Part shown: one piece after another, positions 25,012 through 50,075 of the stretch
Layout of the letters: the number at the start of each line of letters is the position of its first letter
Position numbering within the stretch: position 1 is the first letter of the stretch
Sequence record: NC_054915.1
DNA: 64,000 bases
From: Escherichia phage vB_EcoM_G8
Strand: one strand, 5' to 3'
The notes under the pieces: generated by a model
The model's database searches: none
Told to the model about the DNA's origin: nothing
What the model saw: the letters and a program-made list of their open reading frames with translations, nothing else
Made by a program: the position numbers and the translations under genes

Positions 25012-25059
25012 CAGGGATTGTCAATTCGCAGAGTAAAATATTAGGAGCAATATAACAAC

Positions 25060-25090
25060 GGGGACCTTTCGGTCCCCATATTTTTATTTG
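25060..25090. terminator. bidirectional terminator between gene 54 and alt.-3
   Basis: GGGGACC-TTTC-GGTCCCC then ATATTTTTATTT. Confidence 0.7.
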
Positions 25091-25374
25091 CGGAATGAAA
25101 TGAAAGCAGAAACTGAAGCAACTAAACTGTCTTCAATATAAACTTCAATTTTTACCGGAGCTTCTGACTCAAATTTACCTGTTACTACACCCTGAAAAAT
25201 ACTTTCAGTCTGTTCTGGCTTTGAAAAATTTTCAGAAGGAAAAATTCCAAACTTTTTATCTGTTCCGAAAATTTTGATAAATTCATCATAAACTGCTTCA
25301 TTAAAAGCATTATCAGCAGGAATAACGCCTTCAACTACAAGTTCTTGACCTAAAAAGCGTAAAGAAGATTTCAT
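25084..25374 (-). CDS. alt.-3: hypothetical protein (alt.-3 position)
   Basis: 96 aa; preceded by promoter/stem-loop cassette and SD GAGGA. Confidence 0.7.
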   Translation of the reverse strand: MKSSLRFLGQELVVEGVIPADNAFNEAVYDEFIKIFGTDKKFGIFPSENFSKPEQTESIFQGVVTGKFESEAPVKIEVYIEDSLVASVSAFISFRK

Positions 25375-25381
25375 TTTGTGT

Positions 25382-25435
25382 TCCTCATGTTATGTCAGTA
25401 AGACTACTATAACACAACACGAGGGACTTGTAAAC
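25382..25435 (-). repeat. 54-bp promoter/stem-loop cassette, copy 1 (upstream of alt.-3)
   Basis: 53/54 identical to 37822..37875; minus strand GTTTAC-N18-TATAGT, arms CCTCGTGTTGT / ATAACATGAGG, SD GAGGA. Confidence 0.9.
25406..25435 (-). promoter_or_regulatory. sigma70-type early promoter (GTTTAC -35, 18-nt spacer, TATAGT -10)
   Basis: Minus strand GTTTACAAGTCCCTCGTGTTGTGTTATAGT. Confidence 0.6.
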
Positions 25436-25610
25436 TACATTTTGAACTTTTTAGTACGCGTAATAGGCATGCGTCGATTTTATACTGTTTCATTGTTTGA
25501 AGAGCAGTATCAAAAACAGCATTAATGACACCAATTGGATTTCCACCCAAGTTTTTAAGCTTAACTAATGATAGTTTCTCATTAACACCTATCATTACGA
25601 TATGCATCAT
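25407..25610 (-). CDS. alt.-2: Alt N-terminal fragment paralog (matches Alt residues ~64-120)
   Basis: 67 aa MMHIVMIGVNEKLSLVKLKNLGGNPIGVINAVFDTALQTMKQYKIDACLLRVLKS aligns with Alt MMHIVPFTLTAKGSIAKLKGLGPSPINYINSVFTVAMQTMRQYKIDACMLRILKS. Confidence 0.7.
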   Translation of the reverse strand: MMHIVMIGVNEKLSLVKLKNLGGNPIGVINAVFDTALQTMKQYKIDACLLRVLKSSKCSLQVPRVVL

Positions 25611-25792
25611 TTTATCGCCCGGCTTAACGTTTTATTCGTATCACCGCCAGAGGTGTATGTACAAAATCTAAATCCAGGAAGCACGCTTTCTTCGCCGGCT
25701 TGAATAGCAAAAATTTGTGGTATTTTATGCTTAGGATTTAAGTTAACAGCCGGCGCCGAAGCGCCGTCAAATAATTCTGTAATAAGTTCCAT
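25607..25792 (-). CDS. alt.-1: Alt N-terminal fragment paralog (matches Alt residues ~2-58)
   Basis: 61 aa MELITELFDGASAPAVNLNPKHKIPQIFAIQ…FRFCTYTSGGDTN aligns with Alt N-terminus MELITELFDEDTTLPITNLNPKKKIPQIFSV…FRLCTYTSGGDTN. Confidence 0.7.
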   Translation of the reverse strand: MELITELFDGASAPAVNLNPKHKIPQIFAIQAGEESVLPGFRFCTYTSGGDTNKTLSRAIK

Positions 25793-31797: not shown

Positions 31798-31933
31798 AAC
31801 ATTTTCCTCAATAGGGGCCGAAGCCCTTTTCTTTTGTTTGTATAAGATAATACTATCACAAAGGAACCGTACTGTAAACAACTTTGTGCAATCTTTGGAA
31901 AATAAAAAAAGGACTCCCGAAGGAGTCCTCAAC

Positions 31934-36970: not shown

Positions 36971-37320
36971 TTAGAAAGGTCCTGGATGTCTTCTGCGAAC
37001 TTGTTGAAGGAGTTGTTGATTTGTTTTTCAACCAATCCTGGCTTATGAGCCACCACATCCGCCTTCTTTGCGTCTTTGCGCAGTTTTTCATTTTCACGCT
37101 CAATAGCAGCAATTGCCTCACGATTTTTATTATTCATCGCATCAATATAATTATACTGAATTCGCAAATTATTTAATGCTAAGGCGTTTTCATTGGCCGT
37201 TTTTGTAATTTCTACAACAGACGTTTCTAATCTTTCAATTTTATTTTTTAAAATTAAAGAAGTTCCGCCTAATGCAATTACAATTAATAGCAAACCTGTT
37301 GTCGTATTACTTAATTGCAT
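36967..37320 (-). CDS. predicted single-pass membrane coiled-coil protein
   Basis: 117 aa; hydrophobic segment GLLLIVIALGGTSLIL then heptad-rich region; overlaps alc stop. Confidence 0.6.
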   Translation of the reverse strand: MQLSNTTTGLLLIVIALGGTSLILKNKIERLETSVVEITKTANENALALNNLRIQYNYIDAMNNKNREAIAAIERENEKLRKDAKKADVVAHKPGLVEKQINNSFNKFAEDIQDLSK

Positions 37321-37814
37321 AAAGTTTTAATAACCTCTATAATATCGTCTTGAGAAAGACCGTTAATTAAAATATGATGTTCAGCCGGAGATTTAGAAAT
37401 TTTAAAGCATGCCTCAACATCTTCTGCCATATCCGATGCACTACGATTTGGATTACTAATTCCAAGGCGGTGTTTTCCCGTTAAAGGATTAACGATAATA
37501 TAGCATTTACAGCTATTGATATGAACATTAGGTTGAGTCTGATTAATGAACACTTCACAATCATACTTAGCGAGTTGATTTTCTAAAAAGACTTTCATCT
37601 CCTCAACCGCATCAGGAAGCATATCACGGGCTTTCTCAAGACGACGATTTCGATATTCTTTAACGGTCGTTTTCCGCTTAACTTGCTTAGCTAAATCTTT
37701 CTTAAGATCAGTGATATATCCAACTCGACGATTTCCTTTGAATACAGAAATCCCATCTGTAGTATCACCGTATGCTTCAACGACCATTTCAGTAGTAATA
37801 AGCTGCAAATCCAT
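37311..37814 (-). CDS. alc: Alc transcription termination factor
   Basis: Second Met gives 167 aa (MDLQLITTEMV…); preceded by SD GAGGA. Confidence 0.85.
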   Translation of the reverse strand: MDLQLITTEMVVEAYGDTTDGISVFKGNRRVGYITDLKKDLAKQVKRKTTVKEYRNRRLEKARDMLPDAVEEMKVFLENQLAKYDCEVFINQTQPNVHINSCKCYIIVNPLTGKHRLGISNPNRSASDMAEDVEACFKISKSPAEHHILINGLSQDDIIEVIKTLCN

Positions 37815-37821
37815 CATAAAG

Positions 37822-37875
37822 TCCTCATGTTATGTCAGTAAGACTACTGTAACACAACACGAGGGACTTGTAAAC
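37822..37875 (-). repeat. 54-bp promoter/stem-loop cassette, copy 2 (upstream of alc)
   Basis: 53/54 identical to 25382..25435; single A/G difference at 37849. Confidence 0.9.
37846..37875 (-). promoter_or_regulatory. sigma70-type early promoter (GTTTAC -35, 18-nt spacer, TACAGT -10)
   Basis: Same cassette as 25406..25435 with weaker -10. Confidence 0.5.
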
Positions 37876-49055: not shown

Positions 49056-49085
49056 ATAGTATCACTACCATAGCCTGTTGTAAAC
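49056..49085 (-). promoter_or_regulatory. early promoter with embedded palindromic stem-loop
   Basis: Minus strand GTTTAC-N18-TACTAT; palindrome GGCTATGGTAGTGATACTATAGCC (49052-49075) spans spacer and -10. Confidence 0.55.
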
Positions 49086-50045: not shown

Positions 50046-50075
50046 ATAGTACCATGGAAGGACAAGAATGTAAAC
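50046..50075 (-). promoter_or_regulatory. early promoter (GTTTAC-N18-TACTAT) just after gene 32 terminator
   Basis: Minus strand GTTTACATTCTTGTCCTTCCATGGTACTAT. Confidence 0.5.

Follow-up and report, generated by a model that had tools for sequence, protein, structure and literature searches.

A 54-bp segment with a promoter-like sequence and two complementary arms occurs twice in Escherichia phage vB_EcoM_G8, each time in front of a gene, raising the question of what such a segment does there and how it came to be present in two places. We analysed a 64,000-nucleotide stretch of this genome (NC_054915.1; hereafter the window), which belongs to a Tequatrovirus (T4-like) and is 99.9% identical to vB_EcoM_112 around the first copy of the repeat. 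Hundreds of T4-like genomes match the window at 95% identity or more.

Two early promoter cassettes upstream of alt.-3 and alc

Pattern matching and alignment place both copies of the repeat on the minus strand, with 53 of their 54 positions identical, as had been claimed in the original prediction; any match was seen in 0 of 100 dinucleotide-preserving shuffles. The sequence of copy 1 is GTTTACAAGTCCCTCGTGTTGTGTTATAGTAGTCTTACTGACATAACATGAGGA, and the single mismatch, T25409 versus C37849, falls on the third base of the -10 hexamer. In the alignment, similarity between the copies is bounded exactly by GTTTAC at the 5' end and GAGGA at the 3' end, the 40-nt flanks on either side being dissimilar. 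Both copies lie just 5' of a minus-strand start codon, again as predicted: the ATG of alt.-3 at 25374, and the start of alc at 37814 according to the T4 annotation, with a further in-frame ATG at 37817.

25382-25435, minus strand: copy 1 cassette, from the -35 to the Shine-Dalgarno sequence (SD), upstream of alt.-3 (pattern match, 53/54 alignment)
25084-25374, minus strand: alt.-3, 96 aa, DUF5498, the gene served by copy 1
37822-37875, minus strand: copy 2 cassette, fully intergenic, 5' of alc; the rnlA stop codon TAA is at 37881-37879
37311-37814, minus strand: alc, which copy 2 serves; its 167-aa product (Pfam ALC) inhibits host transcription

Copy 1 is placed between alt.-2 and alt.-3, as in vB_EcoM_112 and T4, and copy 2 between rnlA (gene 63) and alc. 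T4 itself (NC_000866.4) carries both copies, and blastn found about 500 Tequatrovirus genomes with two places per record, a picture repeated in an IMG/VR search. Genome-wide searching for copies, as had been proposed, thus recovered the two per genome and no third close copy in the window, in phage genomes at blastn sensitivity or in IMG/VR. The record of phage fPS-65 annotates a 'predicted early promoter' at the position of copy 2; promoter features are absent from the T4 GenBank records at both cassette sites, and the cassette matched no Rfam family. Beyond alt.-3, a bidirectional GC-rich terminator-like hairpin (GGGGACC...GGTCCCC) is found at 25058-25079, between the convergent genes alt.-3 and 54, and is also a terminator in the annotation of vB_EcoM_112.

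On the other side of copy 1, alt.-1 and alt.-2 (window 25407-25792, minus strand) are what is left of a second alt paralogue that an internal frame-shifting deletion has disrupted.

25407-25610, minus strand: alt.-2, frame-shifted remnant whose open reading frame runs through the -35 and the 5' arm of the cassette to a TAG (25409-25407) inside the -10

This reading of alt.-2 through the cassette to the TAG is the same in the window and in T4. The paralogue adjoining copy 1 is variable: it can be truncated, it is full length in some Tequatroviruses, where it ends ...MSKKFKM* with a TAG stop codon that shares its G with GTTTAC, and in Dhakavirus VR5 there is a tandem pair of full-length alt genes. 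We considered whether the deletion ends at the cassette edge and rejected this, as the paralogue's 3' end (...KKFKM*) occupies the 19 nt preceding copy 1; the deletion lies within that gene and has no connection with the cassette.

The promoter had been read as GTTTAC-N18-TATAGT, with TACAGT in copy 2, which is correct and is equivalent to the canonical TTTACA-17-TATAGT with an extended -10 TG.

25406-25434, minus strand: copy 1 promoter, with -35 TTTACA at 25434-25429, TG at 25414-25413 and -10 TATAGT at 25411-25406
37846-37874, minus strand: copy 2 promoter, with -35 TTTACA at 37874-37869, TG, and -10 TACAGT at 37851-37846

A consensus scan scored the copy 1 promoter at 10/12 of the sigma-70 consensus plus TG, making it the top site of its 1-kb region, and the copy 2 promoter at 9/12 plus TG. 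The TACAGT variant of copy 2 might have been private to vB_EcoM_G8, an idea that was rejected because at least 12 phage records have it in common; other Tequatroviruses have TATAGT. The SD GAGGA is found at the coding-strand 3' end of both copies, where it was expected (25386-25382 and 37826-37822), and is followed in each by 7 nt and then ATG. Upstream of the -35, copy 1 has an AT-rich sequence, CTAAAAAGTTCAAAATGTA, which is however coding sequence of the alt paralogue, and at copy 2 the AT content is only ~53% over the nearest 19 nt, an A/T-rich tract lying farther upstream.

These features, namely the GTTTAC -35, the TG-extended -10, the 17-nt spacer, the short A-rich leader and the GAGG SD, are those of the T4 early promoter family, which has an extended UP/-35/TGn/-10 consensus (Hinton 2010, PMC2988021), and like the genes of that family alc and alt.-3 are both early by RNA and protein in time-resolved T4 omics data (PMC9697503 supplements). 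The same data place the RNA of alt, alt.-1 and alt.-2 in the middle class and assign rnlA an early RNA and a late protein. The early RNA of alt.-3, compared with the middle RNA of alt, alt.-1 and alt.-2, fits with a separate early promoter before alt.-3. Our literature search found no published 5' ends or translation data at the alc and alt.-3 cassettes and no genome-wide T4 transcription start-site data; the T4 DksA RNA-seq paper does not mention alc or alt.-3.

Predicted hairpins and co-evolving arms

The two arms of the cassette had been described as pairing over 11 bp including two G-U, a pairing that is real and was understated. RNAfold predicts a stable stem in both minus-strand regions, consisting of a 14-bp lower stem (three G.U), a 2-nt interruption, a 4-5-bp upper stem and a 4-nt loop, with ~18 bp in all. 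The 44-nt hairpin core folds at -22 kcal/mol (z = -6.9), and 0 of 200 shuffles are as stable.

25411-25424, minus strand: copy 1 5' arm (anti-SD; RNAfold), covering promoter spacer and the start of the -10
25399 (A), minus strand: predicted +1 of copy 1, 7 nt past the -10 by the sigma-70 position rule
25383-25396, minus strand: copy 1 3' arm (RNAfold), including the SD GAGG
37851-37864, minus strand: copy 2 5' arm (anti-SD; RNAfold)
37839 (A), minus strand: predicted +1 of copy 2 by the same sigma-70 7-nt rule
37823-37836, minus strand: copy 2 3' arm (RNAfold), including the SD

In both copies the -10 sits in the upper part of the hairpin and the predicted +1 is located 3' of the 5' arm; on the T4 genome the predicted +1 sites correspond to about 123057 (alt.-3) and 136300 (alc). 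With the predicted +1 between the arms, only read-through RNA would be able to mask the SD. Folding of the two kinds of transcript follows this arrangement: RNA from the predicted +1 folds at -4.5 kcal/mol for alt.-3, with 198 of 200 shuffles folding at least as well, and at -6.3 kcal/mol for alc, with the SD open, while upstream-initiated RNA folds at -35.9 kcal/mol (z = -3.95) for alt.-3 and -37.1 kcal/mol (z = -3.36) for alc, with the hairpin intact in both. The predicted probability of the SD being unpaired is 0.02 in read-through RNA versus 0.60 in own RNA at alc, and 0.09 versus 0.21 at alt.-3, where the contrast is small; across nine alc lineages it does not exceed 0.05 in read-through RNA and reaches 0.4-0.7 in own RNA. 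A terminator scan called no terminator-like site at either cassette and no T-run follows the stem, which makes read-through from upstream plausible.

We compared the upstream regions of 28 alc homologues from IMG/VR together with those of VR5 (Dhakavirus), SF (Mosigvirus) and Marfa. In most lineages, GTTTAC is followed by a spacer segment that is complementary to the SD region, and the sequences of the paired arms differ between lineages (TCTCCATTTGGTT/AACCAAATGGAGA, TCCTCATTTTGTTG/CAACAAAATGAGGA, CCTCGTTTGTT/AACAAACGAGG, CCTCTCATTTT/AAAATGAGAGG and CTCCTCATG/CATGAGGAG). When every lineage's spacer was paired with every lineage's leader, for 11 lineages with 40-60% Alc identity, the mean duplex energy was -20.3 kcal/mol for cognate versus -10.4 kcal/mol for non-cognate arms, with 0 of 100,000 permutations as good, and the cognate partner ranked first in nearly all rows and columns of the spacer-by-leader matrix. 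A pair table anchored on the SD contains two to four canonical pair types at each of positions -12 to -1; all 14 alc-type cassettes have both G's of the SD GG paired, and 9 of the 13 alc lineages that possess the promoter have a 3' arm coinciding with the SD. Similarly, Tequatrovirus cassette variants keep the pairing through G.U to A-U and C-G to U.G substitutions. On these sequence comparisons, the two arms upstream of alc co-evolve in many T4-like lineages. The earlier proposal that read-through transcripts would mask the SD, and that transcripts started at the cassette would not, is in this way backed by predicted folding as well as by arm co-evolution at alc.

Some alc lineages depart from this arrangement. 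A strong hairpin is kept in L024/L033 and L028 and ends 4-5 nt before the SD, and SF/L026 and L034 have a short spacer hairpin only, indicating that SD masking may not be the hairpin's sole role. RNAalifold, run on a plain MAFFT alignment of 19 cassettes, returned no consensus structure, because the register of the helix slips by 1-3 nt between lineages. Separately, three VR26-like contigs (L018, L019 and L036) lack a GTTTAC promoter before alc and have a GGGG...CCCC terminator-like hairpin there instead; their tblastn match to Alc covers ~740 nt versus 500, suggesting an insertion or rearrangement.

Next, T4 (1-80 kb and 160-169 kb) and the window were scanned for strict early promoters with an SD and an open reading frame downstream, and about 30 cassettes were compared. 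Their pairwise identity over 54 nt has a median of 50%, with alc/alt.-3 at the top (53/54). Other close pairs, with an identity range given as 85-91%, are e.8/imm.1 (49/54, including a 40-nt exact run), ndd.4/nrdC.8 (46/54) and e.8/motA (44/54), so near-identical cassettes are a recurrent feature. Complementarity between spacer and SD is far above shuffles, and the cognate initiation region ranks first of 30, for ndd.4, nrdC.8, alc, denV, regB and modB, with a weaker signal for alt.-3 and motB.2. Overall, the spacer contains an arm that can pair with the promoter's own SD in about 8 of 30 T4 early promoters, and the known hairpin of gene 49 was found again by the scan as a positive control. 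Besides those of alc and alt.-3, the anti-SD spacers lie at the following T4 positions (NC_000866.4):

near 166807: ndd.4
53943: nrdC.8
65413: denV
62797: regB
13186: modB
8218: motB.2

In regB and denV orthologues of other lineages the arms differ in sequence and stay complementary, and this ortholog set includes one variant in which the 5' arm is formed by the -10 plus the discriminator. The descriptions of T4 early promoters that we surveyed contain neither the spacer/SD complementarity nor the 53/54 pair.

The same scan brought up further cassettes of other kinds. A ~30-nt module, TGGTACTATACAACTATCAACTACTGATAC, is nearly exact in T4 e.8 (near 70696), imm.1 (27080), motA (163673) and nrdC.10 (55384) and also occurs at window position 50075; these cassettes are another family of repeated cassettes. 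The window has five further strict early-promoter cassettes, with minus-strand GTTTAC at 49085, 34900, 31879, 50075 and 53962. Those at 49085 and 34900 have strong hairpins (-15.6 and -18.3 kcal/mol) that cover the -10 and the start site and end before the SD, and at 31879 the leader contains a GC-rich hairpin, GGGCTTCGGCCC.

How alt.-3 may have acquired its copy

Outside Tequatrovirus, the cassette in front of alt.-3 is of a different type (for example GTTTACAACACCACAAGGATGTGGTACTATTACCTTACACAAACATGAGGAG), which has no anti-SD arm, contains a 4-5-bp spacer hairpin, CCACAnGGATGTGG, and reaches a folding energy of just -7 to -13 kcal/mol. Conservation of this type extends over Dhakavirus-, Mosigvirus- and Marfa-like (Marfavirus) lineages, and all that it has in common with the T4-type cassette is GTTTACAA on the left and ACATGAGGA on the right, motifs common to many early cassettes. 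The T4 alc cassette resembles the alc cassettes of other genera, such as that of Marfa (CCTCGTTTGTT). Because the alt.-3 cassette differs outside Tequatrovirus, the alc cassette looks like the ancestral one, and the alt.-3 copy like an old patch copy of it, bounded by GTTTACAA and ACATGAGGA. On the simplest reading, the interior of the alt.-3 cassette would have been overwritten with the alc version in an ancestor of Tequatrovirus, possibly through a short recombination or gene-conversion patch anchored on these two motifs. The cassette had also been likened to mobile elements, a description that holds as far as this one apparent copying event and does not extend further, there being only two copies per genome.

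Among six Tequatrovirus genomes that we compared, the consensus is identical at both loci and each substitution is present in one copy only, with no sign of ongoing homogenisation between the two copies. The alt.-3 copies have more private substitutions than the alc copies: that of L057/L037 has four, some of which weaken the stem (-19.6 kcal/mol), and that of L038/L062 has three in the 5' arm, all of which preserve pairing (-25.7 kcal/mol). In Dhakavirus VR5 (L006 321-445 and 16891-17015), the alc and alt.-3 cassettes have an identical 32-nt 3' half (through ATGAA), suggesting that exchange between the alc and alt.-3 loci has occurred more than once; their 5' halves differ, and only the 5' arm of the alc copy matches the shared SD region. 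Additionally, in Mosigvirus mobillu (L003 1480-1545, near ndd), a 66-aa open reading frame is preceded by a partial, 40-nt relative of the cassette, whose 3' half (TATAGTAGTCCTACTGAAACATGAGGAACACAAAATG) is close to the T4 alt.-3 leader and whose 5' half is different and without an anti-SD arm.

Proposed mechanism, known designs and rival readings

We consider it probable that the repeat is an early promoter-leader cassette with an anti-SD spacer that would mask the SD in read-through RNA, ancestral at alc and copied to alt.-3 in Tequatrovirus. This reading builds on the anatomy of the sequence, the predicted folding, the co-evolution of the arms across lineages and the phylogenetic distribution of the cassettes; the start site, the masking and the recombination are inferred. 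According to this model, the variable part of the -35/-10 spacer would be used as the anti-SD arm of a T4-type early (sigma-70) promoter-leader. RNA polymerase at the cassette would start at about A25399 or A37839, between the arms, producing a short unstructured leader in which the SD is free, whereas transcripts from upstream (alt/alt.-1/alt.-2 for copy 1, rnlA for copy 2) would carry both arms and form the 18-bp hairpin that buries the SD. The cassettes would in this manner probably let alt.-3 and alc be translated only from own-promoter transcripts, so that synthesis of both proteins would be essentially confined to the time when their own early promoters are active, and read-through RNA persisting into the middle and late periods would be translationally silent.

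A comparable control is known in T4. The SD-masking cases covered in the T4 review by Uzan & Miller (2010, PMC3014915), which does not mention alc, are e, soc, 49 and I-TevI, all of them with late promoters. In these genes a helix formed in long read-through RNA sequesters the SD and in some cases the AUG as well, and a promoter within or between the arms gives a translatable transcript without the 5' arm, which is the arrangement predicted for alc and alt.-3. The promoter there is a late TATAAATA promoter, whereas here it is an early sigma-70 promoter and the cassette contains no TATAAATA. Because the internal promoter is early and not late, the temporal logic would be reversed, with translation on early and off on later read-through RNA. 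As modelled, the alc/alt.-3 cassette works like the e/soc/49/I-TevI family without being a strict member of it; our literature search found no experiment on alc or alt.-3 showing inhibited 30S binding or translation.

The other design to which the cassette had been compared is that of the PeSL elements (Arbiol et al. 2010, PMC2839356; Comeau et al. 2014, PMC4122927), cassettes of promoter and stem-loop for which terminator activity and recombination were shown in RB49/phi1 (PMC2839356, PMC4122927), with recombination crossovers mapped between the -10 and the SD or ATG (PMC2839356). The resemblance stands under the 2010 definition, by which the stem-loop may overlap the -10 (PMC2839356). The alc/alt.-3 cassettes likewise combine an early sigma-70-type promoter, stem-loop, SD and start codon; their stem-loop over the -10 and spacer corresponds to one of the five positional subclasses of 2010; their promoter fits the PST/T4 consensus TTTACW-N17-TAYWAT; and their sequence is repeated within the genome, with evidence of recombination inside cassettes. 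The resemblance breaks down at the terminator and at the PST/T4 layout. The alc/alt.-3 stem is AU/GU-rich rather than made of a G-run and a C-run, and at the sequence level neither copy has a terminator signature; moreover, the PST/T4 stem-loops are upstream of the promoter (2014 figure legend, PMC4122927), whereas here the stem-loop extends across it. PeSL elements have many copies, enriched in hyperplastic regions beside variable ORFans and indels; here there are just two highly similar copies, and the alc context is conserved, not hyperplastic, although T4 has about 30 related early cassettes and the alt paralogue next to copy 1 is variable. The PeSL papers never consider translation, whereas in the present cassettes the SD itself forms part of a 3' arm that co-evolves with its 5' partner. 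Repeats at the loci ipI, ipII and ipIII (Repoila et al. 1994, as discussed in PMC2839356) are also T4-early-promoter repeats with AT-rich stem-loops and were proposed to guide small-gene shuffling; they differ in that ipII and ipIII have long leaders and, in our cassette scan, hairpins that do not mask the SD. As regards early promoters and PeSL-like cassettes, the pair is a well-supported and unremarkable instance of regulatory designs already known from T4.

These comparisons allow other roles of the hairpin to be weighed. It could act in PeSL fashion, mainly attenuating or terminating transcription from the upstream gene or stabilising the 3' end of the upstream transcript, with the homology serving as a recombination site for module shuffling and the overlap with the SD being incidental. 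The terminator activity and mapped crossovers of RB49/phi1 are in line with such a role, as are the window hairpins at 49085 and 34900, which span the -10 without reaching the SD, the hairpins of alc lineages L024 and L028, which stop short of it, and the alt.-3 copy, itself evidence of recombination within cassettes. We nevertheless judge this role improbable: neither copy has a U-tract after the stem or a terminator call, the SD GG is paired in all 14 alc-type cassettes with arms that track lineage-specific SD flanks, and the RNAs of alc, regB and denV continue downstream as early RNA. The two copies in each genome are also 12.4 kb apart across the essential genes 30 and 31, so that excision between them would be lethal. 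The inverted repeat might, on the other hand, function as DNA, as a cruciform or single-strand hairpin that modulates the promoter or early shut-off, or as a hotspot for recombination or replication intermediates. Its centre falls on the -10 and start site, the way in which early promoters are shut off has been described as not fully understood (PMC3014915), and the helices outside Tequatrovirus are nearly all Watson-Crick, with a few A.C in the sense strand, so pair types there cannot separate sense RNA from DNA or antisense structure. Within Tequatrovirus, the two to three sense-strand G.U pairs of the helix would be A.C mismatches in the antisense strand, which folds 5-10 kcal/mol less well than the sense strand, and variants exchange G.U for A-U. 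There is no obvious rationale at the DNA level for a 3' arm that falls on the SD, as it does in 9 of the 13 alc lineages with the promoter, and the turnover of the arm sequences argues against a sequence-specific protein site, leaving a DNA element as a very remote prospect in our estimate.

A different reservation concerns alt.-3 alone. The hairpin may matter only at alc, with the alt.-3 copy being a neutral by-product of the recombination patch whose masking has no selected role. The absence of an anti-SD arm from alt.-3 in all sampled non-Tequatrovirus genera would agree with this, and so would the larger number of private substitutions in alt.-3 copies, among them the four that accompany a weakened stem in L057/L037, and the small predicted contrast in SD accessibility at alt.-3. 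We regard this restriction to alc as deserving some weight and yet rather unlikely, since the alt.-3 copy has been retained at 95% identity or more in ~500 Tequatrovirus genomes, the three 5'-arm substitutions of L038/L062 all preserve pairing, and alt.-3 is downstream of the middle/late-transcribed alt, where masking would be useful.

Beyond the masking cassette at alc and alt.-3, we tentatively raise the possibility of a general rule in T4-like phages, by which about a quarter of early promoters (those of alc, regB, denV, modB, ndd.4, nrdC.8, motB.2 and alt.-3) would encode a co-evolving anti-SD spacer arm and license translation only by initiation at the own promoter, such that early-promoter shut-off would end Alc and RegB synthesis despite persisting read-through RNA. 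This rule is not described in the T4 reviews that we surveyed and is the part most worth following up.

The dose and timing of Alc, which shuts off host transcription, and of RegB, a nuclease of early mRNA, matter in the first minutes of infection. If the proposed mechanism is true, a cis-acting RNA design would explain the abrupt stop of several early proteins while their coding sequences are still transcribed from upstream. A translational function would also be added to promoter/stem-loop cassettes, which have so far been discussed as promoter-terminator and recombination modules, and cassettes of 54-60 bp would provide compact parts for phage engineering, in which expression from a local promoter is insulated from read-through.
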